DNA of 60,898 bases from a virus (taxonomy: Duplodnaviria > Caudoviricetes): IMG/VR virus record IMGVR_UViG_3300030328_000942, positions 1-60,898 of that record; one strand, given 5' to 3'. Below, piece after piece: positions 689 through 60,197 of this stretch. Within the stretch, counting starts at the first letter, position 1; each line of letters begins with the position of its first letter. The notes beneath the pieces are model-generated. The model searched no databases, was not told the origin of the DNA, and saw only the letters and a program-made list of their open reading frames with translations. Made by a program: the position numbers and the translations under genes.

Positions 689-704
689 GTGTCTTCAAAG
701 ACAC
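689..704 (+). repeat. 16-bp palindrome copy 1 (GTGTCTTCAAAGACAC), intergenic, stem extended by GAGCG/TGCTC
   Basis: Read directly. Confidence 0.95.
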
Positions 705-725
705 TGCTCATAAAATTAAATTAAA

Positions 726-1124
726 ATGAAAGTAGAAGTAATTAGTACAGAGGGATTGGACAAAAAAACTATCGAGAAGATAGAGAGTCCAATGACATTT
801 AATCAATGGTGGTTTGAAAACGAAACCACTTTTGTAGAGATACAAAATTCTAAAGGAGAAATCATTAGGGTGTTTCCCGAAAGAATTATCCCATCTCTTA
901 AAGAAGTATCAAGCGAAGACTTGAGACAAGAACTAAAGCTGAGAGGTTACCAAACAGATAACCTATGGCAAGTGGATGATGTAATGCAGAACTATGATTG
1001 TGAAAGTGAAGAGGCACAAGAAGTATTGATTAAAGCATTAGACAATGAAGCCACGATGGAACAAGTTTATCTTGCGATAGACATTATAGCAGACGAAGTG
1101 TTTAACTTAAAAAAGAAATCATAA
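726..1124 (+). CDS. Hypothetical protein
   Basis: ORF track; AT-rich leader; stop overlaps next start. Confidence 0.75.
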   Translation: MKVEVISTEGLDKKTIEKIESPMTFNQWWFENETTFVEIQNSKGEIIRVFPERIIPSLKEVSSEDLRQELKLRGYQTDNLWQVDDVMQNYDCESEEAQEVLIKALDNEATMEQVYLAIDIIADEVFNLKKKS

Positions 1125-1438
1125 TGGCAATGTATATAACTAAAGACAATTTTGTTTGGTTGGATGTAACCGACAGAATGAAATACGCACAAGGAAATGA
1201 GCGTGATGAGATATGGGTAGGCAACGACTTGTATGTAATTCACGAGGATGATAGCGAATCCCTGCTTGAGTCACACGATGAGATAGATGAGGCACTGAAG
1301 TTAGGACTAAAGATTGGTATCGAAGTGGGATTCCTACCAAAAAAGAAACCAACATCATTGCTCAATTGGGAGGAAGTAGATAAAAAAATAATCAATGGAC
1401 ATTGGTGGGTAAAATATGGCTCCCAAAAATTTGGATAG
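1124..1438 (+). CDS. Hypothetical protein
   Basis: ORF track; TAATG coupling. Confidence 0.75.
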   Translation: MAMYITKDNFVWLDVTDRMKYAQGNERDEIWVGNDLYVIHEDDSESLLESHDEIDEALKLGLKIGIEVGFLPKKKPTSLLNWEEVDKKIINGHWWVKYGSQKFG

Positions 1439-1461
1439 TATAAATAAATGTACTATCTTTG
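1430..1461 (+). promoter_or_regulatory. Bacteroidota sigma-A-type promoter (-33 TTTG, 20-nt spacer, -7 TATCTTTG)
   Basis: TTTG 1430-1433 and TATCTTTG 1454-1461 match the established TTTG/TAnnTTTG consensus. Confidence 0.8.
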
Positions 1462-1496
1462 AACAGAAATCAAACATTAATTAAATATAAAAGACA

Positions 1497-1760
1497 ATGG
1501 CAAAATTAATAAAATCAAACGGAGAAGTTATCGAGAACTATAAAGCTATAGGACTTAAAGCAAAACAAAAAGCAGTAGGCGGATACATTGAAGCAGTGTA
1601 TACCGACAAGTATGTAATCTTTTGTAATGAAGAAGGATTGCTTTACCAACTCCCAATGAACTTAGAAGTGTCTGCGTTATGCGGGAAAGTAATAGTAGGA
1701 GATTGCGTAGTGATGACACAGAAAGAATCTATGGAGGAAGAAAGGGGGATGGACTCGTGA
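1497..1760 (+). CDS. DUF3846-like protein
   Basis: QKAVGGYIEAV...CNEEGLL...LPMN...IVGD motif pattern. Confidence 0.7.
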   Translation: MAKLIKSNGEVIENYKAIGLKAKQKAVGGYIEAVYTDKYVIFCNEEGLLYQLPMNLEVSALCGKVIVGDCVVMTQKESMEEERGMDS

Positions 1761-1894
1761 ACATAAAAGCGTGGAGTATAGAAATCATATGGGAGGACGG
1801 AACAATTGAAAGATTGGATAGCGTCCCTCATTATGTGTCAAGAGAAGTAAACAATCATCTTGATATAATAGAAGAAGTTAAAAATTTAAATTAA
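1757..1894 (+). CDS. Small hypothetical protein (GTG start overlapping the previous stop)
   Basis: 3' part of track ORF 1679-1894; GTGA overlap. Confidence 0.55.
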   Translation: MNIKAWSIEIIWEDGTIERLDSVPHYVSREVNNHLDIIEEVKNLN

Positions 1895-1899
1895 ATAAA

Positions 1900-2238
1900 A
1901 TGAAAGCAATATATTTAAAAGAAGCAACGGCAGAAAAATTAAGACCAAATTCTGATTCGAATTTTATCAGACGAATGCAACAACTTGCAGACAAAGAAAA
2001 AGAATTTACATTGAGTGTCTTCAAAGACACGGGTAGGTTAATGAATCGACTTGACTTTGTAAAGAACTTTAGCTTTGATTCCTTAAACGATAACACAGAT
2101 ATGGTGATGACTTATATCGATGGGTTATACATTGAGAAGTTAAAGGATGGTACTTGGTACACACAAGGAGTGCAGGACACAGATATAAATGTGATAGAAG
2201 AAATTCTTTTCAACTCCATAGGGGGTTATGATGAATAG
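1900..2238 (+). CDS. Hypothetical protein
   Basis: ORF track. Confidence 0.75.
   Translation: MKAIYLKEATAEKLRPNSDSNFIRRMQQLADKEKEFTLSVFKDTGRLMNRLDFVKNFSFDSLNDNTDMVMTYIDGLYIEKLKDGTWYTQGVQDTDINVIEEILFNSIGGYDE
2015..2030 (+). repeat. 16-bp palindrome copy 2 (TTCAAA centre), inside CDS (encodes SVFKDT)
   Basis: Read directly. Confidence 0.95.
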
Positions 2239-2323
2239 TTTCGAGCAAACAATGATAGCAATAATCCTCGTTCAATTTATTGGATGGGGATTAATTTATT
2301 TATGGACTAAAACAAATAAGTAA
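2231..2323 (+). CDS. 30-aa single-TM peptide
   Basis: MNSFEQTMIAIILVQFIGWGLIYLWTKTNK*; overlaps both neighbours. Confidence 0.5.
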   Translation: MNSFEQTMIAIILVQFIGWGLIYLWTKTNK

Positions 2324-2613
2324 TGAGTAAAGAAAAGACAGAAGAACTAATAAAAGAAGAGGCGAGAAAAATAGTAATGCTCCTCCTTGAAAAGAACAAA
2401 GCGTATGGCGACACCGCAAACAATCCTCCGAAAATATTCAGCAAGTTAGAGGCAGTGGAAGGTTTGTGTGCAAGGATAGATGACAAGCTATCAAGAATAA
2501 AGATGCGTGGAATAACTGACGCAACTGAAGATAGCGTCAGCGACTTAATCGGATACTTAATTTTATTGAAAGTACAACTCAAAAAGAATAGAAAAAATTT
2601 GGACAAGAAATAA
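2323..2613 (+). CDS. DUF1599 / nucleotide-modification-associated domain 1-like protein
   Basis: KNKAYGD...RIDDKLSRI...EDSVSDLIGYLILL motif. Confidence 0.7.
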   Translation: MSKEKTEELIKEEARKIVMLLLEKNKAYGDTANNPPKIFSKLEAVEGLCARIDDKLSRIKMRGITDATEDSVSDLIGYLILLKVQLKKNRKNLDKK

Positions 2614-2656: not shown

Positions 2657-2857
2657 ATGTCAAAATCAAAAAGAATGTTCACCGAAATGCGTGAACAAAG
2701 CCAAGACTCACACATCGATGCAGAGTATCGATACGACCAATGGATGAGTCAGTTAAATCAAAAACAAAATCACAAGTCTAACTCAGCAGTAGAAATTCTC
2801 GATGAAGTATTTAAATCATACGGGGAAATCTTCGGCTCTAAATCTAATGAAGAATGA
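2657..2857 (+). CDS. Hypothetical protein
   Basis: ORF track. Confidence 0.7.
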   Translation: MSKSKRMFTEMREQSQDSHIDAEYRYDQWMSQLNQKQNHKSNSAVEILDEVFKSYGEIFGSKSNEE

Positions 2858-3147
2858 AACAAGTAGCTTTCGATGAGTACCTAAAAGTAGTGTGCGAAAT
2901 GTTCGGTATTACACAAGAAGATTTGATGACCAAATCTAAGCGAAGAGATATTGTAGATGCACGACATCTTCTATATTATCTGTGCTACCACAGACCAATG
3001 CAAATAAGATACATCCAAGAGTATATGGGGAAGTATGGTTATAAGGTTGGGCATTCTACAATTATACACGGTATCGATACGGTATCCGATAAAGTAGAGG
3101 TAGATGTGGACTACCAAAAGATAGTAACTCAAATGAATATTATCTAA
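2854..3147 (+). CDS. Stand-alone DnaA C-terminal (domain IV)-like HTH protein
   Basis: KSKRRDIVDARHLLYYLC...HSTIIHG resembles DnaA domain IV (R..IV.ARQ.AMYL...DHTTV.HA). Confidence 0.75.
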   Translation: MKQVAFDEYLKVVCEMFGITQEDLMTKSKRRDIVDARHLLYYLCYHRPMQIRYIQEYMGKYGYKVGHSTIIHGIDTVSDKVEVDVDYQKIVTQMNII

Positions 3148-3578
3148 TGACTTATACTATGCAAGACATAATGAATCAAGCAATGGAAGACGAGTTTAGT
3201 GCAAACTTAAATGGGAAAACCTACACTGCAAGGTTGCTTTATGGATGTAAGATAAGTCAAGACGCAGAAACAAAAGAGATTCAAATCCTCAACACCTCAT
3301 TGGGTGGAGAGTGGTATTCCAAAGTCGACAACAATCAAATAAATATTTTTTTAGAAAAAGGTTGGAGAATTGGAGTGTATGAATTATCTTTGTCTAACTA
3401 TCGTTTAAAACTTGACAAGATTGAATTGTCGGTAAAGAAAGAAATGAATGGTAGGCGAAATCCTAAACAGATTCAGTCATTAAAATCTGCGAGGGAAAAT
3501 ATACTAAGGAAGTATAGTAAAATTAAATATAAATTAAATCAAGAATCAAATGGCAAAATTAAAAACGGTAAACATTAA
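3147..3578 (+). CDS. Hypothetical protein
   Basis: ORF track; coupled to neighbours. Confidence 0.75.
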   Translation: MTYTMQDIMNQAMEDEFSANLNGKTYTARLLYGCKISQDAETKEIQILNTSLGGEWYSKVDNNQINIFLEKGWRIGVYELSLSNYRLKLDKIELSVKKEMNGRRNPKQIQSLKSARENILRKYSKIKYKLNQESNGKIKNGKH

Positions 3579-4077
3579 AGGTAAAGAATATGTTGAAGTA
3601 AATGAAAGACTAAAGTATTTCAGAAAAACATATTCCAATTATTCTCTAACATCAGAAGTGATAGAGAAGACAGACAAGACAATCCTAATCCTCGCATCTA
3701 TTATAAATGAAGATGGTAGAGTCATAGCTAATGGTATGGCAGAGGAAGAGAAAGGGAGTACCTTCATTAATAAAACATCATATGTAGAGAACTGCGAAAC
3801 ATCTGCTTGGGGTAGAGCGTTAGCTAACTTTGGTATCGGACTTGATACCTCAGTCGCATCAGCAGAGGAAGTGCAGAATGCTATTAAGAACCAAGACAAA
3901 GTGTCTTCAAAGACACCGACTAATATAGTGTTAGATATTGGTGATGATAATTGGGAAAAGGTTTTAAGCTATGTGGTTGCTAATAAAGAAAAAGGATTAG
4001 GGGCTATCGTTAAAACTTTACAGACCAAATATCAAATAGCAAATAAAGTTAAAACTGAAATCAAAAAACATCTATAA
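3550..4077 (+). CDS. Putative single-strand annealing protein (Sak/Rad52-like)
   Basis: IKGKEYVEVNERL...ENCETSAWGRALANFGIG motif; adjacent to exonuclease and SSB. Confidence 0.6.
   Translation: MAKLKTVNIKGKEYVEVNERLKYFRKTYSNYSLTSEVIEKTDKTILILASIINEDGRVIANGMAEEEKGSTFINKTSYVENCETSAWGRALANFGIGLDTSVASAEEVQNAIKNQDKVSSKTPTNIVLDIGDDNWEKVLSYVVANKEKGLGAIVKTLQTKYQIANKVKTEIKKHL
3901..3916 (+). repeat. 16-bp palindrome copy 3 (TTCAAA), inside CDS (VSSKT)
   Basis: Read directly. Confidence 0.95.
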
Positions 4078-4834: not shown

Positions 4835-4985
4835 AAAATTTATAGTGTCTTTAAAGACACGACTATTTAAAAGAAACCGAATCTCAATAGTGGAAGTTCC
4901 AAACACTTGTGAGAGTCGTGCCGAAAAAAATAAAGTAATAAAGGCAACATTAAAATTCTTGGAACAACACATTATAATAAATTAA
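4821..4985 (+). CDS. 54-aa hypothetical protein (below ORF-track cut-off)
   Basis: MKKFKKFIVSLKTRLF...HIIIN* fills the gap between exonuclease and SSB. Confidence 0.5.
   Translation: MKKFKKFIVSLKTRLFKRNRISIVEVPNTCESRAEKNKVIKATLKFLEQHIIIN
4845..4860. repeat. 16-bp palindrome copy 4 (perfect, TTTAAA centre)
   Basis: Read directly. Confidence 0.95.
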
Positions 4986-4987: not shown

Positions 4988-5266
4988 ATGGCAAATGAAA
5001 ACAACGATGAGAAAATATTTGCGGATGGTTTCTCATTTAAGCGTCAAGAAAACTCTCCCGACTTTGTAGTAGGAAGAGTATCAGTTAAGTGTGATGAAGC
5101 AATAGCTTTTATGAAAAAGCACACAAAGAATGGTTGGTTAAACCTAAACATCAAGTACGCTAAAAGCGGTAAACCCTATATGGAACTTGATACTTGGGAG
5201 CCAACTAATAAAACTCAGGCGGTTAAAGAGCCCGTTGCACAAGCATCGGATGACTTACCGTTTTAG
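4988..5266 (+). CDS. Putative single-stranded DNA-binding protein
   Basis: Beta-rich core with acidic DDLPF C-terminus; recombination module context. Confidence 0.65.
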   Translation: MANENNDEKIFADGFSFKRQENSPDFVVGRVSVKCDEAIAFMKKHTKNGWLNLNIKYAKSGKPYMELDTWEPTNKTQAVKEPVAQASDDLPF

Positions 5267-5292: not shown

Positions 5293-5323
5293 GAGGGGTG
5301 TCTTCAAAGACACCTCTCTTTTT
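5293..5323 (+). terminator. Intrinsic terminator whose stem is palindrome copy 5 (5298-5313)
   Basis: GAGGG-GTGTCTTCAAAGACAC-CTCTC-TTTTT downstream of the SSB gene. Confidence 0.75.
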
Positions 5324-7906: not shown

Positions 7907-8144
7907 TATAAACCGAGCAATGATTAATTCTTTAAATGTTTTTACAGGACATAAAACTTTAATTGAATTAATATTAAGTGATGAAGGATACTTTGTATTC
8001 AACCCTGAAAAGCCCGTGTCTTTAAAGACACTACAAATTATGCTTGATTACTTTGTCTCGGTAGAAGATTATGAAAGATGTGGTATAGTGCAGAAACTAA
8101 TTAAAGATGGAAGTATAATAGGTAAAGACTTAAGAGATGTTTAA
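7899..8144 (+). CDS. Hypothetical protein with UvrB/C-like helical motif
   Basis: YFVSVEDYERCGIV motif. Confidence 0.6.
   Translation: MSDINRAMINSLNVFTGHKTLIELILSDEGYFVFNPEKPVSLKTLQIMLDYFVSVEDYERCGIVQKLIKDGSIIGKDLRDV
8016..8031. repeat. 16-bp palindrome copy 6 (TTTAAA), inside CDS (VSLKT)
   Basis: Read directly. Confidence 0.95.
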
Positions 8145-11822: not shown

Positions 11823-11838
11823 GTGTCTTTGAAGACAC
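11823..11838 (-). repeat. 16-bp palindrome copy 7 (TTTGAA on +), exactly filling the gap between the two convergent genome arms
   Basis: Lies between the TAA ending at 11822 and the minus-strand stop at 11838. Confidence 0.95.
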
Positions 11839-17800: not shown

Positions 17801-20800
17801 CTTTCGCATCTGCTTTAATCTCTGCCGGAGTAACCGGAGTGCTAAAAGTATATTCATCTCCAAACCCCTCTTCGGTTTCTGCTTCTTCTTTTGTTGCAGC
17901 TCTTTTCCCTTTCTTTGTAGACACCTCTACAGGTGGGGTAACTTCTTCTGTAGTTACTTCTTCTGTAGTAACCTCTTGTGTAGGTGTAACCTCTTCGGTA
18001 GCTACATCTTCTGTCGCTACATCTTCTTGGAATTTCGGAGGTGTTTTATAGTCTTGATACAAATGTTCCGCATTTTTTTCTGCTTGTTTTTTGGTAGGAA
18101 AATATTCAATGATATACGCCTCTTCCAATCCTCTTACGGGACTATCAAAACCGGTATCATCAAAATCCTCCGTGACCTCCATAGTTACACTCCATCTTCC
18201 ATCAGGGTTAACCGCTTCTCCCACTTCATTTATTTTCCCTCTATTTTCAATTGTAAACTTATAAAGAGGTGTTGTCGCTACATATACCCCTGCTCTTTGT
18301 TTCTTCCACTTTAGCTTCTTAGGTTGTTTTTTTATTGCCGCTTCTATCTTCGCTTTTTTCTCAGCCGGAGTAAGCTCGGTAGTAGATTCAACAACAGTTT
18401 CTCCCTCTAACATAGCCTCCATTTCAGCAACTGATTCTGCTTGTGTCTTTGAAGACACCATTTCATCTACACGCAATTGATTTGCACGAGTTTTTACAAC
18501 TCGTTTTTGAAATTCAGAAAGTTTTTGATTGGCTATTTGTTTGTCTGCAATACCTGCAAGTATTCTATCAAGACGGGATTGGTCAATAGTTTTATTATCA
18601 TAAGCTTGAACATCAGCTATAGTGGGTTGCTTAAGAGATTTAGGAACAACAATAGTTTCTGATTCTGTATCTACTGACACCTCCGCAGCTTTACGTTGTT
18701 TGTTTTCTTTGAAGATTCTTGCTGCTTCATTCATATTAGCAAAACTTTCTTCACGCAACTCAACTGCTTCTTCATTGGTTATATCACCATTGTTTAGAGC
18801 TTGTGTAATAGCTTTTGTTTTTTCTCTTCTTTGTTTACCTGTATCTTCATTTACTTCTATGGATGATAAAGGGTTATTCCCCACCACCTGTGGTGTTTCT
18901 ACCTCACTCTCCTGAGTGGTCGTAGATTCTGTGGTTTGTTCTTGAACGCCCCGTAACGATTCTTCCATCGTTTCCATATTTCCGGTTTGTTGATTTTCAT
19001 CCACTGTTCCTGTTTCTTGCTTTGAAATGGCATCTTGTCCAAATTTATCGGTTACTAATTCACTTACTTTTTCATCGTTGTCTATCGTTATGTTTGCTGC
19101 TTTTAATTCTTTAGGGGACATATCCATTATACGGCTCAAAAATTTTGAACGCTTCAGTGATTTCCCGTCTATTGTATATTTTGATTTTGCATCTGTTCTA
19201 ATGTCTACACCGGAAGTTTGATTCTCATTTAGACCTACAATCCCTGCGAGGTTAGTTTGAAATCCTTGTCCAAAAGTATTGCCTTGTTCTATTTGTGTAT
19301 CAGTAGCTGACTCAATATTTGGTCTAACAGTTTTAGTCTCTACCAACTCATTAAGCTCGGCTTTTATTTCTTTTAATTTACCTGAGAAAACTTCCCTTCT
19401 ATTAGATGAAGATTCAAGCTCTTGTTTTGCTGCCATCAACTCCATCGTTCTATTCAATACTTCAGGTGAAGATTTACCTTCTGTGGCGTTTAAAACATTT
19501 TGTGCGTCTTGCCTTAAGCCTAAGTTTACCTGTATTCTTTGGTTAGTTTCTGTGCTTATCTGTCCAAGCTTGTGCATATTGTTTGCCCAACTTGAAACCT
19601 TTGTAGGACTTGGAGCAAAAAATCCTTTAAGCTCATTATTTAAACCTCTTATAGAAGAGATGTCATTAGCTATAGTAGTGTTGTTTTGTGCACGTAAATC
19701 TAAAGCCGTATTTAGAGCCGCAAATGGAGCGTTGTTTCCAAGACCACCCATTGCTTCTGCAAATATCTCCTTCATCTCTATTTTATCTCCGGCTGAAATT
19801 TGTGCTGCTAATTCACCTGTCGCTTCTGCAAAAGGGTCAAACACTACACGTTCTCCTAATTGCACCGCTACTCTTCGTCCAAAAGAAGCAGTCTTTCCTG
19901 CGTTAAATACTCTACCGGCTAAACCTGAAGACAACATATCTACCACCGCAATTGGAATACCTCTTTGTGCTCCTCTCACATTTCCTTTCTTCCACACTAA
20001 AGGGTCGTTTAAAGCGGCAGTCATATCTTCAGGGTCATTTATATTATAACCCTCTTTACGAGCTACATCTAAAATAGCATTCGTGTATTCTAATGCGTAG
20101 GATGTGGCTGCAAATCCTGTCCTTAAACCCCATATAGCTCCGGCTGCTGCACCACCTCCCGTAGTAACTACACCACCGGGTCCTGTAACAAAACCTGTAG
20201 CACCTATACCTGCACCTATACCTGTTCCGGTTGCAGTTGTAGCTGCAATAATTTTAGTACCATACGGCAGCATTTGGTTTATACTATTAGCCGCCATACT
20301 AAACATCAACTCTGCGGGATTATCAGAGAATGCATCCCAAGCCTCACGAAAACCTTTAGCTCTATGCCATCTTCCCATAGCTCTACTTGTTTCTTCTGTA
20401 TTACTTGCATCTAAATAATCTACTATTCTTTGTGCAAGTTCAGCCGTGCTTTCATCGTCATCACCTTCAAGACCTAATGCCATTTTTAATATTTCATTAC
20501 CGGCTTTACCTCTATACCATCCTTCATCTACTTGCTGCATAAAACCTCCCCAATTATCTACAAGCTCTCCTCTTAAATTTTCATCAAACTTTCCGCTTAA
20601 ATAGGTTTGGGCTACTTCATATTCATTAGCAGCCAATGATGATACATCTTTAGTTGCTTTATAAGATGTAAGAATTGCATCTTGCATCTCTTTACCATCA
20701 TCATCTGTGGCGTTGTAATCTTTTAATTCATCTATGGTTAGTCCAAACTCTGCTAAAGATTTAGCCTCTAATTCATTACTAACATATTTTGCAGATGCGT

Positions 20801-25211: not shown

Positions 25212-25622
25212 TTATATTTTTTTTATTAGTTCTGATGTGTAAGCAGCACCTTGATTAAATCCAAGTTTCTCATACACCTCTATTAATCCTTTATGTTTTA
25301 CAAGAGCATACACATATTTATGTCCTGTTTTGATTGCTAAATTTTCTAAACTAACTATAAGCCACTCAAGAGCATTTTTGCGTTGAGGTTTTTTGCGGTA
25401 TGTCTTTGAAGACACTATCCAATCTACCCAAGCTACTCCTGAATTAGTGGTATAAATAAATCCTGCACATACAGGAATATCTCCATCTAAAACCATCAAA
25501 CCACCGGTACCATTTTGAGGTAAAAAATCCTGTTGAGGAGGCTCCCATTTCCAATCACTCCACCATTTACATAAAATAGTTTCGTAATCAGTGTCTAATA
25601 ATGGTCTTATAGTTAATTCCAT
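25212..25622 (-). CDS. GNAT-fold acetyltransferase-like protein
   Basis: IRPL..D N-terminus and YEKLGF C-terminal motif; position typical of podovirus ejection modules. Confidence 0.6.
   Translation of the reverse strand: MELTIRPLLDTDYETILCKWWSDWKWEPPQQDFLPQNGTGGLMVLDGDIPVCAGFIYTTNSGVAWVDWIVSSKTYRKKPQRKNALEWLIVSLENLAIKTGHKYVYALVKHKGLIEVYEKLGFNQGAAYTSELIKKI
25400..25415 (-). repeat. 16-bp palindrome copy 9 (one mismatch), inside CDS (VSSKT)
   Basis: ATGTCTTTGAAGACAC on +. Confidence 0.85.
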
Positions 25623-36168: not shown

Positions 36169-36207
36169 AAAAAAAAGGGAAGTGTCTTTAAAGACACTCC
36201 CTCTTTT
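36169..36207 (-). terminator. Terminator after the major capsid gene; stem built on palindrome copy 10 (36182-36197)
   Basis: Minus strand GAGGGA-GTGTCTTTAAAGACAC-TTCCC-TTTTTTTT. Confidence 0.8.
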
Positions 36208-41369: not shown

Positions 41370-43597
41370 CTAATTATCTGACTTAATTTTCCATCATTAC
41401 TATACCTTGCAAAGTTAATCATAATTCTTGACTCTTTTTTTTCAGGCATATATAAATGTTTTTGACACGCCATAATAGCTAAACCCGAGCTAATTGATGC
41501 ATCATACGAAGTTCTATTGCTAATATCGAACCTTGCCCAATCCTCTAAGGTACGATTAAAATACATACCACTCATATTCTCATTATCACCTAATCCCACG
41601 TGTGCTTCTATAAAAGACTCTATAGCTGCAGCGTGAGCTTGTTTTACGGCTTCACTTGAGTTAGGAATACCCCCTAATTCTTTTTCGGTTTTAGAGAGCT
41701 TTGTATAATGTTTATCCGGTCTATTGATACAATAATGTCTATATCCTCTATTTTTAAAATGATATAATAATCGAGGTTTGTTATTTTCAATAAGTATTGG
41801 CATTCCATAAAAAACACACGCCATTAAAACATCTTCAAAAAATATTTCAGCCGTTTGAGGTCTTGCAATGTATTCTAAAAAAAATTCATTACTTGGAGCC
41901 TCTTCCATATTAAATTTAGTTAATCCGTGTAATGCTCCATTAGAACCTCCTCCTCCTACAGTTCCTGAAATGTCATAGCTATCACAACCAAAGGCTCCAA
42001 TGTGTTCGTTGCCCGGATATAATTTACCGTGCTTGGTATAACAATTATTCTGTAATCCTTTATTTGGTGCCCACGTAATAATAAATCTTCCTCGCTTATC
42101 GGGAGTAAAATAAACTTTAGTATCCTTTACTCCATTTTCCCAATGAAAAGAACCTTTAGTTAAATGTTGTTCTGTTATCATTGAATCGTTATAATCTATC
42201 TGTTGATATATCTTTGTAAGATTAAATAAAGATTGTTTACTTTCATCTCTAAATGCGTGTGACTCAGTGCGTGGAAATTGACGATAGTATTCATTTAATG
42301 CATCAGGGTCGTGCTTTAAAGAGTCTACTTCATTTTTCCAATATTGTAAAGAGCTTTGAGTAATGTATTCATTATCAATACCTCTTATTTTTTCTACTAC
42401 ATCATCTATAACCGGATGACCATACCTGTCAATAAAACCCTCCATATTCCATTCCATCGGAATAAATAAAGAATATAATCCTGATTTTGTTTGTCCATTA
42501 GCATTACGTGATAACACATCAGAGTCGGTATATAGTTTTTTAAAATTTCCTCCTCCTTTATTTAATGCATTAGATGTAGAACCCATCATACATTTACCAA
42601 TAATTCTACTTCCTAATCTAAGACAAGTTTTTGTAACACGCCAATTGTTTAATATATTATTGGGCTTCAACCATTTACCGCTCTCATCGTGAACTAATAA
42701 TAATAATTTTTCCCCATCATAAGAGTTATCGTCTGTGTTTTTCCAATCTATTGTGGTATCTAATCCTTCTATTTCTTCTTCATCTAATTCATACATATTT
42801 TTTTTAGTAATCTTAGACGCAGGAACACGATAAGCTAATTCAGTTTTAGGTTTATCCATTCCATCCATAATAGGTTTAAAAAAGAAAGGTAAGCGACTAT
42901 TGATAGGAACAACTTTGTCTGTAAACATTTTCTTTGCATCTGACCCTGTTTTAGAAAGTATACCTACTCGTGAATCTTTTACAAGAGTACCGGTGTTTAC
43001 GCATTCTGATGAAGACATAAATGAAAACCCTGAACGTCTTATCTTTAAATATATCATTCCAAAACTTCTCTTGTCGGCTTTACAAGCTTCCCAAAAGATG
43101 TATAAAATTCTATTTGCTTCTCTAAATTCAGGATAGCCAATATCAATATTAGTCCATTGCAAATACATATAATGAGCTCCCGTAATATAAGTAGGTACTC
43201 CATTATTCATAAACCAAAAACCATACTCTCTATTATCAAACTCGGCTTCTATATAATCCACCCATCTTGATTTAAATTGTGATGGCATTTCATTCCATTG
43301 AAAGATGGATGATATTTTAGATAAAGGTTTTGGAAGTTCTTCTCTTTCCCAATATTGTTCGGTGGAAGTGGAGTGTCTTTGAAGACACTCTTTAGGAGTT
43401 TTAGGTAATGCAATGTATAGTCCGGAAATATAAAGTACCTCACCTATTTCTCCGGATTTAGATATAACAATAAGGTCATACTTTTCATTATACCCATACA
43501 CCCAAGAACGATTACGATTTTTATTCGTCAATACACTCTTCGGTACGTAGTCTTTCACTACTCGATATAATATACTATTTTGACCTTCGTTCTGCAA
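41366..43597 (-). CDS. terL: Terminase large subunit
   Basis: KIRRSGFS Walker A-like, LLVHDESGKW Walker B, GSTSN, GCDSYD RNase H-like nuclease. Confidence 0.9.
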   Translation of the reverse strand: MQNEGQNSILYRVVKDYVPKSVLTNKNRNRSWVYGYNEKYDLIVISKSGEIGEVLYISGLYIALPKTPKECLQRHSTSTEQYWEREELPKPLSKISSIFQWNEMPSQFKSRWVDYIEAEFDNREYGFWFMNNGVPTYITGAHYMYLQWTNIDIGYPEFREANRILYIFWEACKADKRSFGMIYLKIRRSGFSFMSSSECVNTGTLVKDSRVGILSKTGSDAKKMFTDKVVPINSRLPFFFKPIMDGMDKPKTELAYRVPASKITKKNMYELDEEEIEGLDTTIDWKNTDDNSYDGEKLLLLVHDESGKWLKPNNILNNWRVTKTCLRLGSRIIGKCMMGSTSNALNKGGGNFKKLYTDSDVLSRNANGQTKSGLYSLFIPMEWNMEGFIDRYGHPVIDDVVEKIRGIDNEYITQSSLQYWKNEVDSLKHDPDALNEYYRQFPRTESHAFRDESKQSLFNLTKIYQQIDYNDSMITEQHLTKGSFHWENGVKDTKVYFTPDKRGRFIITWAPNKGLQNNCYTKHGKLYPGNEHIGAFGCDSYDISGTVGGGGSNGALHGLTKFNMEEAPSNEFFLEYIARPQTAEIFFEDVLMACVFYGMPILIENNKPRLLYHFKNRGYRHYCINRPDKHYTKLSKTEKELGGIPNSSEAVKQAHAAAIESFIEAHVGLGDNENMSGMYFNRTLEDWARFDISNRTSYDASISSGLAIMACQKHLYMPEKKESRIMINFARYSNDGKLSQIIR
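43373..43388 (-). repeat. 16-bp palindrome copy 11, inside terL (CLQRH)
   Basis: Read directly. Confidence 0.95.
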
Positions 43598-52795: not shown

Positions 52796-54400
52796 TTATT
52801 TGGTGTCATAACTACGTGCCATTGTTACAATTGCATTGGTAGATAAAATAGTAACCGCTACCGATACTGCATTCTGTAAAGCTTGTCTTGTAACCTTAAC
52901 AGGGTCAATCACCCCAAGAGTCATTAGATAGCCATACTTTTCTTTTTTTACATCATATCCATATAGAGCTCCTTTACAATCATCATAGATTACATCAGCA
53001 TCTAATCCTGCGTTCTCTAAGATTTGATAAAGCGGTGCTTTAAGGGATTCAGCTAAAACTGCGTAAGCAGTTTTTTTTGCGTAATCTTTTTCAGAAGATT
53101 CTTTTATAGAATAACTTTTATGAAAGTTGTATAATGATAATCCACCTCCCGGTAGTATACCTTCTTCAAGTGCAGAGCGTACTGCACATACCGCATCATC
53201 TACACGGTCATATAATTCTTTCTGCTCAAGGTCAGTGTTACCTCCCACATATACCACTCCTATCCCACCGGATAGCGAAGCAATACGTTGGTTAATAAAC
53301 TCACGGTTTGTTTTATCTTTTTCATTTTTGTGAGCCTCCTGAAGTTGAGCTATTCTTTCAGTTACTTCTTCTGTCGTCTCTTCATCATCCTTGACGATGA
53401 CCGTTGAGTCCCGGCTAACTATCACCTTAGCACAGTGACCCAAATCGTTGAAATTAATCAAACTCAAGTCATCGCCTGTCTTTTCACTAAAATACTTAGC
53501 ACCTACACTTATCGCAATATCTTGCATAAGCTCGTGTTGCCTGTATCCAAAGTCAGGAGGGTTTATCGTACAAACCTTTAATCCATTCTTAATTACATTA
53601 GCCGCTAAAGTATTTACTACATTAGTTGAGCAATGACCAATCAATAAAAGTTTTTTACCTTCATTGATAATTGGTTTAAGAACATTTTCAATTTGTAATA
53701 TGTTATTTATCTCAGTGTCGCATACTAATACATAAGTGTCTTCAAAGACACACTCGTCTCTCTTTTGGTCATTGATAAATAAGTTAGATGCATATCCTCT
53801 TTTTACCTTAATCCCTTTTGTGGTTTCATAATAGGTTGAGGAGGTTTTACTTTTCTCTACTGTTACTACACCATCTTTACCTACACTCTCATACACATCA
53901 GCTATGATATCACCCACTTGCTTATCATTGTTCGCTGAGATAATAGCTACGTCACGTAATCTTTTTGGGTCAAGTGTTTTACCTTTTACCTTTAGCGACT
54001 TCGATATCTGTTTGGTTTCTTCTACGATGTGTCTTAATACTTCGGTTCGATTGTCGTTATCAATTAATTCGGTTCCTGCATTTACTAATGCCTCTGCTAA
54101 TACAATAGCAGTTGTGGTTCCATCACCGGCTGAGGATGCAGTTCTATCGGCTGCCTCTTTCATCATCCTAACCGCAAGGTTCTCTACCGGGTCTAATAAT
54201 GAAATAGACTTCGCTACAGTCACACCGTCTTTTGTTACAGTGATTCCGTGTAAGTGTTCGGGTGATTCTATTAATACAGTATTACCTCTTGGACCTAATG
54301 TTGACTTAACTGCATTAGCTATTTTATTTATACCGCTTATAAGTTTGGTTCTACCTTCATCAGAAAAATGAAGTTCTTTGGGAGTGAATCCTTGTTGCAT
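52796..54400 (-). CDS. groEL: Chaperonin GroEL-like
   Basis: STLGPRG, TKDGVTVAK, AGDGTTTA, EGILPGGG, GVIDPVKVTR. Confidence 0.97.
   Translation of the reverse strand: MQQGFTPKELHFSDEGRTKLISGINKIANAVKSTLGPRGNTVLIESPEHLHGITVTKDGVTVAKSISLLDPVENLAVRMMKEAADRTASSAGDGTTTAIVLAEALVNAGTELIDNDNRTEVLRHIVEETKQISKSLKVKGKTLDPKRLRDVAIISANNDKQVGDIIADVYESVGKDGVVTVEKSKTSSTYYETTKGIKVKRGYASNLFINDQKRDECVFEDTYVLVCDTEINNILQIENVLKPIINEGKKLLLIGHCSTNVVNTLAANVIKNGLKVCTINPPDFGYRQHELMQDIAISVGAKYFSEKTGDDLSLINFNDLGHCAKVIVSRDSTVIVKDDEETTEEVTERIAQLQEAHKNEKDKTNREFINQRIASLSGGIGVVYVGGNTDLEQKELYDRVDDAVCAVRSALEEGILPGGGLSLYNFHKSYSIKESSEKDYAKKTAYAVLAESLKAPLYQILENAGLDADVIYDDCKGALYGYDVKKEKYGYLMTLGVIDPVKVTRQALQNAVSVAVTILSTNAIVTMARSYDTK
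53736..53751 (+). repeat. 16-bp palindrome copy 12, inside groEL (CVFEDT)
   Basis: Read directly; the only asymmetric copy oriented against local transcription. Confidence 0.95.
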
Positions 54401-55228: not shown

Positions 55229-55244
55229 GTGTCTTTAACGACAC
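55229..55244. repeat. 16-bp palindrome copy 13 (variant GTGTCTTTAACGACAC)
   Basis: One mismatch to consensus. Confidence 0.8.
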
Positions 55245-56160: not shown

Positions 56161-56176
56161 GTGTCTTCAAAGACAC
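56161..56176 (+). repeat. 16-bp palindrome copy 14; extended hairpin 56154-56182 abuts hammerhead 1
   Basis: AGGGGTA-palindrome-TATCCT. Confidence 0.95.
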
Positions 56177-56181
56177 TATCC

Positions 56182-56232
56182 TCTGTCCACAGATGAGTGT
56201 CTGTGCTGATGAGTTCAAAAGAACGAAACAGA
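56182..56232 (+). ncRNA. Hammerhead ribozyme 1 (type III), predicted cleavage GUC^ after 56187
   Basis: UCUG-UC | CACAGA-UGAGUG-UCUGUG | CUGAUGA | GUUC-AAAA-GAAC | GAAA | CAGA: full core and three stems. Confidence 0.92.
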
Positions 56233-56258
56233 AAACCAACAAATAATTAAATTAAATT

Positions 56259-57266
56259 ATGAGAAATTTAAGTCAAAATGGAGTTACTTTCACTACTCAC
56301 GATGAGCCATCGAGAGCGAGAGTTTCTTCTTATGGGAGCAAACCGCTACCATACAAAATTAACAAAGCTGAGTCTGTTGATATCAATGGGCTACCGAGCA
56401 GTGCAAGAAAAAACTTGTACACTGCTGATGGCGGAACAGAGTCATTGTTCACTATCGGTATGGAGTTCGAAAAAGTTCGCTTTCATAGAGGAGCAGTGCA
56501 AGAGTATGCATTGTTCTGCGGATTTGAACACGATGGTAGTTGTGGAGCTGAAGCAGTTACTCACATCTTACCATTGGTAGATAAGTCAATGTGGAGAACG
56601 AAAGTTTTCAATATGTTTGCTGAAGCGAAGAAAATCATTGAGGATGAGTATTCTCCATCTAATGTGAAGTGCGGTGGTCACATTACATTGGGAGTTAAAA
56701 ATGTAAGTGGTAGAGAGTTATCTGATAGACTGAAGAAGTTCAGTGGATTAGTGATGGCTATCTACAGACACAGAGTCTGTAACTACTACTGCAGAGGTAA
56801 CTTTAGAATGGACACATCTGATGAGTATGGTAGTAAGTATACTATTGCTAACTACAAGACTCTTGGTGATGATGGAGTAGTTGAGTTTAGAGTTCCATCG
56901 AGATTCACATCAGTGAAGCAGACAATCCGAAGATATGAGTTCTTTTATCAGATGGTTGACTTTGCGATGAACAAACAAAATTCATCTCTACATCATTTCT
57001 GTAATGCGGTTAGACCAATCCTAATGTCTATGTATGATAACGACACTGAGAAAGTTAACAAGACCATCGAGTTAGCAAAGGAGTTTCAAAAGGTTATCAA
57101 TGGTGGTAAGATTGATGAGAAGACTTGCGGATGGTTTGAGGGATGGTGGAGTTCTAATACTCAGTTAAACTATTTCTTCGGTGGAAGAAGAAGTGACTAC
57201 AAAAGGAATTTCAGTCCATCTGAATACACAGATGTAAGGAAGTTCAAAGAGGAGCAATACTTTTAA
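56259..57266 (+). CDS. Putative amidoligase (COOH-NH2 ligase, glutamine-synthetase-like fold)
   Basis: IGMEFE, HDGSC..EAVT, CGGHITLG, VEFR motifs. Confidence 0.7.
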   Translation: MRNLSQNGVTFTTHDEPSRARVSSYGSKPLPYKINKAESVDINGLPSSARKNLYTADGGTESLFTIGMEFEKVRFHRGAVQEYALFCGFEHDGSCGAEAVTHILPLVDKSMWRTKVFNMFAEAKKIIEDEYSPSNVKCGGHITLGVKNVSGRELSDRLKKFSGLVMAIYRHRVCNYYCRGNFRMDTSDEYGSKYTIANYKTLGDDGVVEFRVPSRFTSVKQTIRRYEFFYQMVDFAMNKQNSSLHHFCNAVRPILMSMYDNDTEKVNKTIELAKEFQKVINGGKIDEKTCGWFEGWWSSNTQLNYFFGGRRSDYKRNFSPSEYTDVRKFKEEQYF

Positions 57267-57273
57267 CCTCAAC

Positions 57274-57301
57274 ACATCCTAAGCAAGATGTAAAACTGCT
57301 T
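57274..57301 (+). ncRNA. H-type pseudoknot immediately 5' of hammerhead 2
   Basis: ACAUC/GAUGU stem; loop AAGCA pairs with downstream UGCUU. Confidence 0.6.
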
Positions 57302-57352
57302 TCTGTATGGTAGTGAGTGCTACCACTGATGATGCCAAAAGGTTGAAACAGA
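57302..57352 (+). ncRNA. Hammerhead ribozyme 2 (type III), predicted cleavage GUA^ after 57307
   Basis: UCUG-UA | UGGUAG-UGAGUG-CUACCA | CUGAUGA | UGCC-AAAA-GGUU | GAAA | CAGA. Confidence 0.85.
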
Positions 57353-57376
57353 TAAATAAATTTAAATTAAATAAAA

Positions 57377-57595
57377 ATGAAAACATTTAACACATTTCAA
57401 AACGCAACGCTTAACCTAATCACATTAATGGTCTATTCAATGGCAGTTAGAGTTCTAATTGACATATGGGTAAACAATGTAAATGATTTTAGGTGGATAG
57501 AACTAACCTATGCAAGTGCATCGAGCATCTTTGTAGCGATACTTGGTTGGTTTCTGCTATTGATAAACATCTCAGTATGGAAAGAAAATAAGTAA
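57377..57595 (+). CDS. Small two-TM membrane protein
   Basis: Two hydrophobic segments; flanked by hammerheads 2 and 3. Confidence 0.7.
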   Translation: MKTFNTFQNATLNLITLMVYSMAVRVLIDIWVNNVNDFRWIELTYASASSIFVAILGWFLLLINISVWKENK

Positions 57596-57659
57596 GGCAT
57601 ACTGATGAGTTCTCAATGAACGAAAGGGTGGTGTCTTCAAAGACACTACTCTCTATGTC
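57596..57659 (+). ncRNA. Hammerhead ribozyme 3 (type I) whose stem III is palindrome copy 15 (57631-57646); cleavage CUC^ after 57653
   Basis: GGCAUA | CUGAUGA | GUUC-UCAAU-GAAC | GAAA | GGGUG-GUGUCUUCAAAGACAC-UACUC | UC | UAUGUC. Confidence 0.88.
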
Positions 57660-57686
57660 AAACATTAAAATAAGAAACGATTAAAT

Positions 57687-58489: not shown

Positions 58490-58491
58490 TT

Positions 58492-58821
58492 ATGGAAACT
58501 AAATTCGAATGGACTGATGAAGCAGTCAAATCATTTACACAAGTCTACTCTTCAAACTTTAGTAGCAAACTTGTAGACTTTCCTTGTAGCTACAAGGACT
58601 ATAGTGGAAAGAACATCCACGAGAAGATGGAGCAGTTCAAGTTGGACTACAAGCCACAAGAGAAAGTAACATATTGCATCACAATTAAATCTGTGTATGG
58701 TAACTATGGAACAAATGTCAAAGAGTTCAACAACGAAAAGCATTTCGAGAATTGGTATGCAATGATGAGTCGAAAGGGACACAAGATAGTTGGAGTTGAA
58801 TTATTAAAAGGCGAGGAATAA
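58492..58821 (+). CDS. Hypothetical early protein
   Basis: ORF track. Confidence 0.75.
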   Translation: METKFEWTDEAVKSFTQVYSSNFSSKLVDFPCSYKDYSGKNIHEKMEQFKLDYKPQEKVTYCITIKSVYGNYGTNVKEFNNEKHFENWYAMMSRKGHKIVGVELLKGEE

Positions 58822-58982
58822 TGGAAAGACAGAAATACTTTAAGGTCAGATATGCAGGGAAGCTAATTCAAGTTATCCCTGCTCACACGAAATGGGAAGC
58901 AATCGATAGGGTGTACCACGAGAACATCGGAAAGTACAAATGGATTGTCAGAGAAAAATTTACTGCCGTAATCAGTAGATAG
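58821..58982 (+). CDS. 53-aa hypothetical protein
   Basis: MERQKYFKVRY...AHTKWEAIDR...*; TAATG coupling. Confidence 0.6.
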   Translation: MERQKYFKVRYAGKLIQVIPAHTKWEAIDRVYHENIGKYKWIVREKFTAVISR

Positions 58983-58994
58983 ATAAAAAAAAGA

Positions 58995-59026
58995 TTTGGT
59001 AGTGTCGATTTATTGTCGTATCTTTG
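58995..59026 (+). promoter_or_regulatory. Bacteroidota sigma-A-type promoter (TTTG-20 nt-TATCTTTG)
   Basis: Perfect consensus match. Confidence 0.8.
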
Positions 59027-59054
59027 TCTAAATCAAACATTAATCAGTAGTTCT

Positions 59055-59070
59055 GTGTCTTCAAAGACAC
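59055..59070 (+). repeat. 16-bp palindrome copy 16, in the 5' leader of the GATase-GGCT gene
   Basis: Read directly; ~30 nt downstream of the -7 box. Confidence 0.95.
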
Positions 59071-59091
59071 TGCTACACAAACAGAAACACT

Positions 59092-60165
59092 ATGTGTATT
59101 ATTATTGTAAAACAAAAAGGTCAAGATGTACCAAGAGAAATTCTCAAAACATCTGCCCGTATTAATCCTCACGGATTAGGAATCGTATGGCTCGATACAT
59201 ACGAAGTAACTTATCACAAATCAAAGGAGTATAATTTACTTGACAACAACAGACCATACATCGCACACTTTAGATATGCGACCATTGGTAAAATCTGTAA
59301 AGAAAATACTCATCCGTTTGTATGCGGGAATAATAAAGATGAGTTACTAATGATGAACGGAACTGCTCACGGATATGGAAGTAAGGCGATGACAGATACA
59401 GAAGACTTAGCAATCAGACTTGGTAAATCATCAAGACAAAGTTGGGCTAAGCAGTTGAAGAAGTTCGATGCGAGATTCGTATCCATCAACACAAGAACGA
59501 GGTCGTTTCAAATCTACAACAAGTTGGCTTGGAAAAAGAGAGATGGTGTATGGTATTCAAAAGGCAATGTGTTGGAAGATAATCTTGTCGCAGTATATGG
59601 CACACTAAAGAAAGGTTATGGAAATTACTATAGCTACCTTACCTCATCCAAGCATCTTGGTAATGGAACAACAAAAGAGAAGTATCCATTGGTGGTCGAT
59701 GGACTACCTTACCTCATCGAAGAAAAAGGAAAAGGGTACAATGTAAAGGTTGATGTGTTTAAGGTCAGCGATGACAAGCTAAAACATTTAGACCAATTGG
59801 AATCTCATCCACGATGGTATGTGAGAAAACAAGTTCCAATCATAGTGAAAGGTAAAGAGTTACTATGTTGGGTGTACTTTAATCCATCTGCTAAATCAAG
59901 ATGGAATGGCTCAAACCATACTGAGTCTTACGAATATCAAAGACCAAATAATTATTTCAGATATGTGGAGGAGCCACAGATAGTTGTGGATGATAGGCAA
60001 ACGAATATGTTTGATGACTTAGGTGAGTGTGATGTAGAATCATCCTCTCCTTACTGCATCGAATGTTTCAATGACTTAGTATACGATGGCTTAGGAAACG
60101 ACTACCAATGTGTAGGGTGTGGTGCGGTATACGAGAAGTCAATGATAGAAAGTACAAATTGTTAA
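59092..60165 (+). CDS. Class II glutamine amidotransferase fused to a gamma-glutamylcyclotransferase (AIG2-like) domain and a C-terminal Zn ribbon
   Basis: N-terminal MC, NPHGLG, HFRYATIG, NTHPF, MNG; VYGTLKKG...LDQLE; CxxC...CxxC. Confidence 0.85.
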   Translation: MCIIIVKQKGQDVPREILKTSARINPHGLGIVWLDTYEVTYHKSKEYNLLDNNRPYIAHFRYATIGKICKENTHPFVCGNNKDELLMMNGTAHGYGSKAMTDTEDLAIRLGKSSRQSWAKQLKKFDARFVSINTRTRSFQIYNKLAWKKRDGVWYSKGNVLEDNLVAVYGTLKKGYGNYYSYLTSSKHLGNGTTKEKYPLVVDGLPYLIEEKGKGYNVKVDVFKVSDDKLKHLDQLESHPRWYVRKQVPIIVKGKELLCWVYFNPSAKSRWNGSNHTESYEYQRPNNYFRYVEEPQIVVDDRQTNMFDDLGECDVESSSPYCIECFNDLVYDGLGNDYQCVGCGAVYEKSMIESTNC

Positions 60166-60181
60166 TTGTTGGTTGGGGGTG

Positions 60182-60197
60182 GTGTCTTTAAAGACAC
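60182..60197. repeat. 16-bp palindrome copy 17; extended hairpin 60175-60204 abuts hammerhead 4
   Basis: GGGGGTG-palindrome-TGCTCCC. Confidence 0.95.

Follow-up and report, generated by a model that had tools for sequence, protein, structure and literature searches.

The window analysed here is the whole of the viral record IMGVR_UViG_3300030328_000942 (Duplodnaviria; Caudoviricetes), 60,898 nucleotides in length, in which the 16-bp palindrome GTGTCTTYRAAGACAC recurs between and within genes. The CheckV completeness of this 60,898-bp IMG/VR record is 100%, and it is a complete 60.9-kb podophage genome of the Flavobacteriia type. Genes recognised in it include terL and genes for a portal protein, a capsid-like protein, GroEL, a primase-polymerase, a helicase and an exonuclease. 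Its terL has 73% amino-acid identity to that of the metagenomic genome MW202828.1 and 46% to that of the nearest isolates, the Flavobacterium Elemovirus phages. A megablast search of the first 20 kb against isolated phages gave no match, Rfam at gathering thresholds returned nothing in the window, and the window contains no tRNAs. Pfam and PHROGs scans covered about 40 of its about 78 open reading frames (ORFs).

The palindrome occurs as 15 exact matches and two copies with one mismatch each (25400 and 55229), whereas dinucleotide shuffles gave 0.00 exact matches and 0.07 matches at up to two mismatches. An earlier reading of the window, made from its letters alone (hereafter the sequence-only reading), had listed 17 copies at these positions, and all 17 start coordinates hold. 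So do its assignments of copy-bearing genes as terL and GroEL and its statement that genic copies fall in all three reading frames, the core standing at codon offset 0, 1 or 2 and being translated as SVFKDT, VSSKT, VSLKT, CLQRH or CVFEDT. Its emphasis on maintenance inside genes is borne out for seven copies and misses that most copies, ten of the 17, are intergenic according to the ORF map and homology (Table 1). The central pyrimidine-purine step is not neutral: of the window's 12 asymmetric copies, 11 have CA there on the transcribed strand. Neighbouring copies lie 0.4-11 kb apart, between or within genes, and no cas annotation was found in the proteins scanned. A clustered regularly interspaced short palindromic repeat (CRISPR) array was rejected on this absence of cas genes from the scanned proteins and of tandem repeats with short spacers, in keeping with the earlier statement that spacers are lacking. 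No RAYT-type or other transposase was found among the about 40 ORFs scanned. A host repeat of the repetitive extragenic palindrome (REP) kind was likewise rejected, the 16-mer not being enriched in host chromosomes among the matches listed.

Table 1. Palindrome copies, hammerhead ribozymes and associated features of the window
Feature	Coordinates	Strand	Setting	Remarks
Palindrome copy	689..704	+	intergenic	11-bp RNA hairpin with flanks, -18.5 kcal/mol; stop codon 14 nt before, next ATG 21 nt after
Palindrome copy	2015..2030	+	inside ORF 1900-2238	SVFKDT; peptide and motif common to many family A homologues of the ORF
Palindrome copy	3901..3916	+	inside ORF 3550-4077	VSSKT; same place in G001 too
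Perfect palindrome	4845..4860	.	intergenic	gap between exonuclease gene (4079-4834) and single-stranded DNA-binding protein (SSB)-like gene (4988-5266)
Palindrome copy	5298..5313	+	intergenic	extended hairpin, -18.2 kcal/mol, then T run; terminator-like
Perfect palindrome	8016..8031	.	inside 81-aa ORF 7899-8144	ORF lies between primase and helicase genes
Palindrome copy	11823..11838	-	intergenic	fills exactly the gap of convergent stops, 11412-11822 (+) and 11838-22373 (-)
Palindrome copy	18443..18458	-	inside 3511-aa ORF	VSSKT; no stem extension
One-mismatch copy	25400..25415	-	inside ORF 25212-25622	mismatch is a G-U pair on the sense strand
Palindrome copy, apex of predicted intrinsic terminator	36182..36197	-	intergenic, 3' of major capsid gene	outer stem and U8 tract; syntenic in 10 genomes
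Palindrome copy	43373..43388	-	inside terL, residue ~70	CLQRH; same place in 9/9 terL-holding family A genomes, in one as a variant
Palindrome copy	53736..53751	+	inside GroEL gene (gene on - strand)	CVFEDT; same residue in 5/9 GroEL-holding family A genomes
One-mismatch copy	55229..55244	.	intergenic, divergent control region upstream of early operon	hybrid of T-type and G-type half-sites
Palindrome copy	56161..56176	+	intergenic	12-bp hairpin with flanks, -19.2 kcal/mol; abuts type III hammerhead
Palindrome copy, stem III apex of type I hammerhead	57631..57646	+	intergenic	minimum-energy fold
Palindrome copy	59055..59070	+	intergenic, leader of GGCT-like gene	outer stem covaries; G009 and G010 keep hairpin, lose palindrome
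Perfect palindrome	60182..60197	.	intergenic	13-bp hairpin with flanks, -21.6 kcal/mol; abuts type III hammerhead
Type III hammerhead ribozyme	56180..56234	+		predicted cleavage after C56187
Type III hammerhead ribozyme	57300..57354	+		no palindrome upstream; predicted cleavage after A57307
Type I hammerhead ribozyme	57596..57659	+		stem III apex is palindrome 57631-57646; predicted cleavage after C57653
Type III hammerhead ribozyme	60202..60256	+		predicted cleavage after U60209
Candidate reader, 215 aa	55499..56146	+	first early-operon gene	predicted homodimer; weak KorB/ParB-type likeness; co-occurs with palindrome families
Bacteroidota-type -7 promoter box match (TAnnTTTG)	59019..59026	+		29 nt upstream of copy 59055; pattern match only

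More than 90 related genomes and loci were used for comparison. The 11-genome set consists of the window, nine IMG/VR relatives and MW202828.1, with about 65-74% nucleotide identity in alignable genes, and 80 related loci were collected by way of a neighbouring DnaA-IV gene. The motif is conserved in these relatives, the 11 genomes together containing 162 copies of GTGTC-N6-GACAC. A total of 98 copies fall outside ORFs that start with ATG and are 60 amino acids or longer, in genomes whose non-coding share is only about 9%; the figure is somewhat generous and to that extent counts against an intergenic preference, terL copies having been scored as intergenic where terL starts with TTG.

The 16-mer is very probably the constant tip of an RNA hairpin module that lies between phage genes and often adjoins hammerhead ribozymes. 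By itself the core folds at -5.6 kcal/mol; with their flanks, intergenic copies form stems of 11-13 bp at -17 to -22 kcal/mol. The transcribed strand was fixed by the neighbouring genes for 118 copies in the 11 genomes, and a stem was scored as extended where at least four further pairs, G-U included, continued the palindrome. Extension was found for 28 copies on the sense strand versus two on the antisense strand, with random positions at about 2%, and was a property of 27 of 69 intergenic versus one of 49 genic copies. Because a G-U pair on one strand is an A-C mismatch on the other, the molecule that folds would be the transcript or the non-template DNA strand. The centre on the sense strand is CA in 60 copies, TG in 21, TA in 12 and CG in three. 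A run of at least four T follows in only 15 of the 69 intergenic copies, so most copies are not intrinsic terminators. The strand-specific G-U extensions, together with covariation at syntenic sites and the occurrence of the core at a terminator apex and in hammerhead stem III, support the RNA hairpin that the sequence-only reading had offered as one of two options.

Two sites carry the covariation. In the hairpin 3' of the major capsid gene, 46 of 50 cells of the first five outer pairs keep their pairing while the letters change, and the U tract is present in 10 of 10 genomes; by its predicted structure the site is an intrinsic terminator, of which the core is merely the tip. A stable G+C-rich hairpin directly before a U tract, as expected of intrinsic terminators, is found at 36182 (U8) and in part at 5298. 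At the leader of the GGCT-like gene (copy 59055), the outer stem covaries between genomes, and G009 and G010 have kept the hairpin through G-U pairs and compensatory changes while the DNA palindrome has been lost. The promoter box match 29 nt upstream, for which we assumed the -7 consensus given in Table 1, places this copy in a 5' untranslated region (UTR). The hairpin role is real but generic, since other hairpins occupy the same places in some genomes: at the post-capsid site, MW202828.1 and Elemovirus both carry an unrelated G+C-rich hairpin followed by a U tract.

Three type III hammerheads and one type I hammerhead lie between the first genes of the early operon, all four of them missed by Rfam at gathering thresholds. 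With relaxed thresholds, RF00008 matches 56180-56234 and 60202-60256 (E 7e-7 and 9e-5). The sequence-only reading, sound in suggesting an RNA structure, had passed over these ribozymes adjoining the motif. In 10 of 10 aligned type III sequences from four genomes the catalytic core (CUGANGA ... GAAA) is invariant, and the cleavage triplets are GUC, GUA or GUU, with a nucleotide other than G at the cleavage site. Over 16 pairs, 95% of the cells are paired and 11 of the 16 pairs show compensatory changes, a covariation score reached by 0 of 500 shuffles. On this comparative evidence we consider the type III hammerheads to be real.

A covariance model was used to survey eight family A genomes (those with GTGTC arms) and then the 80 related loci, finding 19 and 120 type III hammerheads, respectively, every one of them sense-strand and within the early operon. 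For 15 of the 19, a gap of 0-7 nt separates the end of the palindrome from the ribozyme; in one the distance is 25 nt, and three have a different hairpin. Among the family A ribozymes of the 80 loci, 67 of 94 have a palindrome within the preceding 12 nt, and another hairpin precedes 21 of the remaining 27. In palindrome-less loci an unrelated G+C-rich hairpin precedes six of six ribozymes. The order of elements is constant, with the stop codon followed by the hairpin, the type III ribozyme, an A/C-rich leader of 17-27 nt and the ATG. The type I hammerhead at 57596-57659 has no Rfam match; the minimum-energy fold of 57590-57672 shows the conserved core, with stem I open and stems II and III both closed (z -4.3). 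Three more type I hammerheads with the palindrome as stem III, but with different stems I and II, occur in one phage of the GTCCG family (C), for a total of four. The hammerheads adjoining copies have diverged freely and the palindrome cores have not. A type III match was also seen in the isolated, palindrome-less Flavobacterium phage Elemovirus (L141, NC_055853.1) at 17865-17921 on the minus strand (32.4 bits, E 2e-6).

The core, NEVERTHELESS, is probably read by sequence, and a reader that co-evolves with it probably exists. Arm positions 1-5 and 12-16 scarcely vary between genomes that share about 65-74% of their nucleotides, and variation is mostly at pair 6/11 and the central two bases. 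In MW202828.1, 14 of 14 copies have G6-C11 in place of T6-A11, and three further records have only this G-type form. When sorted by arms, the 80 loci comprised 59 with GTGTC (family A), one with GAGAG/CTCTC (family B), three with GTCCG/CGGAC (family C), one with a 14-nt form and 16 with none. The 14-nt form, TGTCTTYAAAGACA, belongs to L326 (record G017) and does not keep the outermost G-C pair; an earlier sort had placed 17 loci as palindrome-less, and reclassification of L326 left 16. Over whole genomes, family B has 12 copies and family C has 13 (one genome), with wholly different, fully compensated arms and the A/T-rich centre kept. Both families behave as family A does, lying before type III hammerheads, forming stem III of type I hammerheads, extending on the sense strand and serving as a terminator between convergent genes. 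No repeated palindrome was found in the 50 kb of Elemovirus examined.

Within a genome, every copy has the same arms. One site in the helicase gene (residue ~319) is common to nine family A genomes and one family C genome, each with its own arms, and the peptide there changes from LVSLKT to LVRLNG between the two families. In terL, the codons for CLQRH are identical in the four genomes shown, whereas the peptide differs in MW202828.1 and Elemovirus. This comparison of terL orthologues, with identical codons where the peptide is not conserved elsewhere, agrees with the earlier argument that selection inside genes acts on the nucleotide sequence; the view of the motif as a phage-wide element is supported too. 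Concerted, lineage-specific arms point to a sequence-specific, co-evolving reader or to very efficient homogenisation, as independent drift of hairpins cannot give this pattern.

The sequence-only reading had named a host factor among its candidate readers, for which the bacterial genomes speak poorly. A scan of 185,579 species' genomes gave, among the matches listed, scattered single matches in unrelated phyla, roughly at chance level by our own arithmetic. In one Cytophagales metagenome-assembled genome, eight of eight copies lie on a single, phage-sized contig of 56 kb. A host factor with an identical natural site is therefore unlikely.

Among phage proteins, the first product of the early operon, with 215 amino acids, may be the reader, a tentative identification that we make from gene distribution and structure models. 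Co-occurrence was counted in loci with at least 9 kb of upstream flank, 51 palindrome-bearing and 11 palindrome-less, after clustering of their ORFs. The 215-aa gene was present in 45 of 51 palindrome-bearing versus one of 11 palindrome-less loci, the 335-aa gene (56259-57266) in 47 of 51 versus none of 11, and the GGCT-like gene (59092-60165) in 49 of 51 versus none of 11. Of the three products, the 215-aa protein alone has the look of a nucleic-acid binder. Its model is predominantly helical (AlphaFold2 predicted local distance difference test score, pLDDT, 75), and a stretch resembling a helix-turn-helix (HTH) is constant in family A (GW-QKS-F/Y-x-YK) but differs in the two G-type genomes (L-SK...), as it does in family C (Y-NKSFFYD) and family B. 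As a homodimer, the protein gave a symmetric model with a score of 0.78 versus 0.00 for the best control; this is a model only, and the mark it reached is reached by 20 of 30 known homodimers and one of 23 monomers. Three runs agreed in at least 92% of contacts, with a partner pLDDT of at least 80. Structure comparison aligned 86 residues with 1r71 (Z 5.0, root-mean-square deviation 2.9) and gave Z 5.0 for 1vz0. The leads from the Atlas are weak (DUF3102, DUF6192 and a plasmid partition protein), and no Pfam domain was found in homologues among the matches listed (120 of 732). The protein is thus a lead rather than a demonstration.

We propose that the 16-mer would be the constant apical part of an RNA hairpin module placed between cistrons by this phage clade. 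The module would cap intrinsic terminators, supply stem III of type I hammerheads and form a hairpin in a 5' UTR; where it stands directly 5' of a type III hammerhead, self-cleavage would leave the upstream mRNA ending in the hairpin. The hairpin, its terminator and hammerhead contexts and the concerted arms are apparent from the alignments and predicted folds, as is the failure of the HTH candidates considered below. The core is kept letter-identical throughout the genome, including a few genic sites, and the arms switch as a block between lineages, which argues for a co-evolving, sequence-specific reader encoded by the phage. As a leading guess, the dimer-predicted 215-aa early protein would bind the palindrome as duplex DNA, much as KorB or a stoperator repressor binds its sites, and the operator would have been accommodated at positions where transcription of a palindrome does no harm or brings a benefit. 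Taken as a whole, a hairpin module whose core is read by a co-evolving phage factor, with the 215-aa DNA binder as leading guess, is in our judgement about evenly poised between being right and wrong.

The existence of a reader, its identity and the nature of its substrate, DNA or RNA, are matters that we infer. Several features suit DNA: the dyad has 5-bp arms around a tolerant 6-bp centre, T/C half-site variants at position 6 occur singly or doubly and in either orientation, and conserved genic copies stand outside any RNA context. RNA is suited by the strand-specific stem extensions, by the terminator, hammerhead and leader contexts, and by the bias of the sense-strand centre, which is unexpected for a symmetric DNA site. 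The most economical reading is that both levels matter, and both options of the sequence-only reading, a dimeric DNA site and an RNA hairpin, remain viable. A palindromic protein site that is transcribed necessarily forms a hairpin, and in a compact genome it would thus have been merged into sites that need a hairpin anyway. A bolder form of the proposal, which we advance with considerable reserve, is that every lineage of these ~60-kb Flavobacteriia podophages would have a "brand", a 16-nt palindrome with arms of its own, set in ribozyme and terminator hairpin tips and in core-gene sites and read by a co-evolving dimeric early protein. If true, the brand would couple control at the DNA level (a roadblock, silencing, or self-recognition versus co-infecting relatives) to ribozyme-based mRNA processing, and phage hammerheads would gain a testable place in a regulatory circuit, a combination not described before.

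Several observations weigh against the proposed module and its reader. Transcript ends, cleavage and termination are all predictions from sequence, and copies inside genes show neither a stem extension nor an evident role in RNA. The Rfam scores of the two listed hammerheads (42.4 and 35.1 bits) are under the gathering score of 48.5, and the third type III hammerhead (57300-57354) is unlisted by Rfam. Among single half-site variants at pair 6/11, C-A was found ten times and U-G six times on the sense strand; C-A being about as common as U-G, RNA pairing does not appear to be selected at this pair, which suits independent DNA half-sites. With regard to the 215-aa protein, its co-occurrence with palindromes is common to the two neighbouring enzyme-like genes, and the helix differences come from only three or four lineages, which are divergent over the whole protein. 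Its VIA-align 2 score of Z 5.0 to the DNA-binding domains of KorB and Spo0J is below the noise guide of the tool, and it gave no match in Foldseek (PDB, E <= 0.001), Pfam, PHROGs or PDB profile (E <= 10) searches.

The reader may instead act on RNA, as a phage protein that recognises the hairpin as a tag on mRNA ends and stabilises, sorts or processes the transcripts made by hammerheads and terminators; stem-loop binding protein on histone mRNA and Cas6 on CRISPR repeats are analogues. The preponderance of sense-strand extensions (28 versus 2), the terminator apex in 10 of 10 genomes, the adjacency to hammerheads and the stem III role would all follow, as would the loop bias (CA 60 versus TG 21) and a core that is always at the exposed tip of longer stems. 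We nonetheless hold this explanation to be rather unlikely, though worth keeping in view. The loop centre varies and the lower stem is invariant, which is the opposite of most known hairpin-protein recognition, sense C-A is as common as U-G at pair 6/11, conserved genic copies have no 3'-end context, and the proteins scanned include no RNA-binding domain.

A pure network of DNA operators is improbable. In such a network, a dimeric phage repressor on 13-21 palindromic sites would shut off or roadblock transcription, with KorB on RK2 and the stoperators of Cluster A mycobacteriophages as analogues, and the hairpins would be an unavoidable by-product, so that the strand-specific G-U extensions (28 versus 2), the 0-7 nt spacing to hammerheads in 15 of 19, the stem III role and the U tracts are all left unexplained, and the changes in G009 and G010 keep the hairpin and break the palindrome. 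These difficulties stand against the attractions of a perfect dyad with 5-bp arms and an A/T-rich 6-bp centre, independent half-site variants and lineage-specific arms, against the placement of 14 of 14 MW202828.1 copies in the early region and of copy 55229 in the early control region, and against the availability of an early protein predicted to dimerise.

There may be no reader at all if recombination by the phage's own exonuclease, annealase and SSB duplicates the hairpin cassettes and keeps them uniform, the cassettes acting as crossover points for the shuffling of small early genes; a crossover role of this sort has been proposed for the PeSL cassettes of T4-type phages. The early region is indeed strongly mosaic, with many ORFs in just one to three of the 10 relatives compared, the genome encodes an exonuclease, an SSB-like protein and a possible annealase, and other hairpins can substitute at the same sites. 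We find this explanation decidedly improbable all the same: sixteen bases are short for gene conversion, the terL, helicase and GroEL copies have persisted while the nucleotide sequences diverged by about 30%, the change of arms in the helicase copy came at the expense of amino acids, and the adjoining hammerheads diverged where the cores did not.

The readers named by the sequence-only reading, two DnaA-IV HTH proteins (2854-3147 and 10095-10628) and a winged HTH protein (wHTH; 51910-52344), do not track the arm families and are very unlikely to be responsible. The identification of both DnaA-IV proteins was correct (Pfam PF08299, E 7e-13 and 2e-7), and the 97-aa protein (2854-3147) occurs in 10 of 10 motif-bearing relatives used for comparison, whereas a search of a stretch of Elemovirus did not find it. 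Its recognition helix is, however, essentially the same in families A, B and C and in palindrome-less loci, where a DnaA-box type of reader should have a specificity that tracks the site sequence, and the gene is present in the 16 of 80 loci that are without any palindrome family. The 177-aa protein (10095-10628) was not found in motif-bearing G005, G009 and G010. The wHTH of family C is 71% identical to that of the window versus 59-68% within family A, and wHTH genes occur also in palindrome-less genomes, including Elemovirus.

That the palindromes act as hairpin promoters, used as in phage N4 by an RNA polymerase that the virion delivers, with the 3511-aa ORF as enzyme and the SSB-like protein as cofactor, is scarcely credible. 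This reading was rejected on geometry and G-U pairing, for although an ORF of giant virion-protein size (11838-22373), an SSB-like gene and a concentration of copies in the early region are all present, the 3511-aa protein has no Pfam, PHROG or PDB sequence match, both stem arms pair through G-U and so lie in one RNA, a hammerhead sometimes begins 0-3 nt after the core and leaves no room for a start site that includes stem III, and copies also stand at terminators and inside late genes.

The parallel closest in form to the present palindrome is found in mycobacteriophages. Cluster O genomes contain, according to the account of their palindromes, more than 30 copies of 17-bp palindromes (TGTTCGGNNNCCGAACA) with invariant arms and a variable centre, one third of them in coding regions and function unknown (PMC4351075). 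The two systems share tens of copies per genome, of which many are intergenic and about one third genic, a higher density at one end and, as far as that account goes, the lack of a known reader. They differ in sequence, host and phage group. No orientation bias was seen by the authors for Cluster O, whereas the present motif favours CA at its sense-strand centre by about 3 to 1, and the features described for Cluster O include no hairpin extension, terminator, ribozyme link or arm families (PMC4351075).

No integrase or immunity gene was noticed in the window, where no systematic search for them was made; stoperators are bound by the immunity repressor of a temperate phage. The present copies resemble the stoperators of Cluster A, as these are portrayed there, in being many short conserved sites in short intergenic gaps, proposed to act on passing transcription (PMC4351075). 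Stoperators are, in the same description, asymmetric and oriented with transcription (PMC4351075), whereas the present motif is palindromic and both orientations occur.

To our knowledge, KorB sites do not double as RNA hairpins. The 215-aa candidate also differs from KorB in having no detectable ParB CTPase domain, the likeness in fold being only Z 5.0. KorB operators would nevertheless be the best mechanistic model for reading of the DNA: as outlined for RK2, a palindromic operator lies both close to promoters and well away from them, and its reader, a dimeric HTH protein of the ParB family, silences genes at a distance (PMC11790492). In that outline, as here, a palindromic site is repeated around a replicon of about 60 kb.

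In REP elements and at the RNase III sites of T7 early mRNA, intercistronic hairpins come to lie at the 3' ends of mRNAs and shield the message upstream of them, and the conserved foot of REP stems is read by a dedicated protein. The present copies are much shorter than REP elements, and cleavage would be by predicted ribozymes rather than by RNase III as in T7. Hammerheads have been reported between genes of prophage transcription units, with a proposed role in cutting long transcripts into gene-length mRNAs (Perreault et al. 2011, PMC3088659). Several lie between genes of one transcription unit, as reported there and as found here, but the fixed, lineage-specific 5' companion hairpin seen here is absent from the features described in that report.

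In the literature searched on Elemovirus, on hammerheads of flavobacterial phages and on phage palindromes and stoperators, supplementary tables being outside its scope, the motif is not described. A genome-wide identical hairpin paired with ribozymes, its use as stem III or terminator apex and the lineage-specific arm families are apparently new relative to those texts. Genome-wide palindromes in phages are on record at least from the Cluster O work and hammerheads between phage genes from 2011, both without an established role; here the two are physically joined. The clade offers testable statements on cut sites, message-ending hairpins, invariant sites inside genes, arm sets and a best reader candidate. 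The available arm sets (GTGTC, GAGAG, GTCCG and the G-C pair at positions 6/11) are natural arm swaps, with which specificity could be tested as they stand. In its succession of hairpin, ribozyme and unstructured leader, the module is nature's equivalent of the synthetic insulators by which gene expression is made predictable.

Other features of the window and its relatives were noted in passing. A second palindrome family in G001 and G007 was rejected as collagen-like Gly-X-Y coding repeats, which give spurious short palindromes in a large structural gene (G001, 1-300 and 60000-61100; G007, 48600-49800). The counterpart of the 3511-aa ORF is annotated as a structural protein in Elemovirus; its size recalls N4-like virion RNA polymerases, an identity that nothing in the analysis supports. 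The SSB-like gene (4988-5266, plus strand) encodes a 92-aa protein present in all relatives, with an acidic C-terminal tail ending in DLPF, which we take to resemble the tail of bacterial SSB, and it adjoins an exonuclease VIII-like gene and the possible annealase (3550-4077). The 335-aa protein (56259-57266, plus strand) has strongly conserved enzyme-like motifs without a family match, and its gene has hammerheads on both sides. In the divergent control region there are a perfect G+C-rich hairpin at about 54655-54680 (within 54640-54690), a long complementary pair of C-rich and G-rich stretches at about 55010-55075 and CTCCGCT-like short repeats at about 55110-55170 (both within 55000-55180); none of these had an Rfam match. 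Matches to the -7 box, often TATCTTTG, lie on the minus strand 20-35 nt upstream of many late genes (for example 54427, 51383, 47518, 38898, 35373, 34740 and 25630) and are few in the early plus-strand operon, a hint that early and late genes use different promoters.

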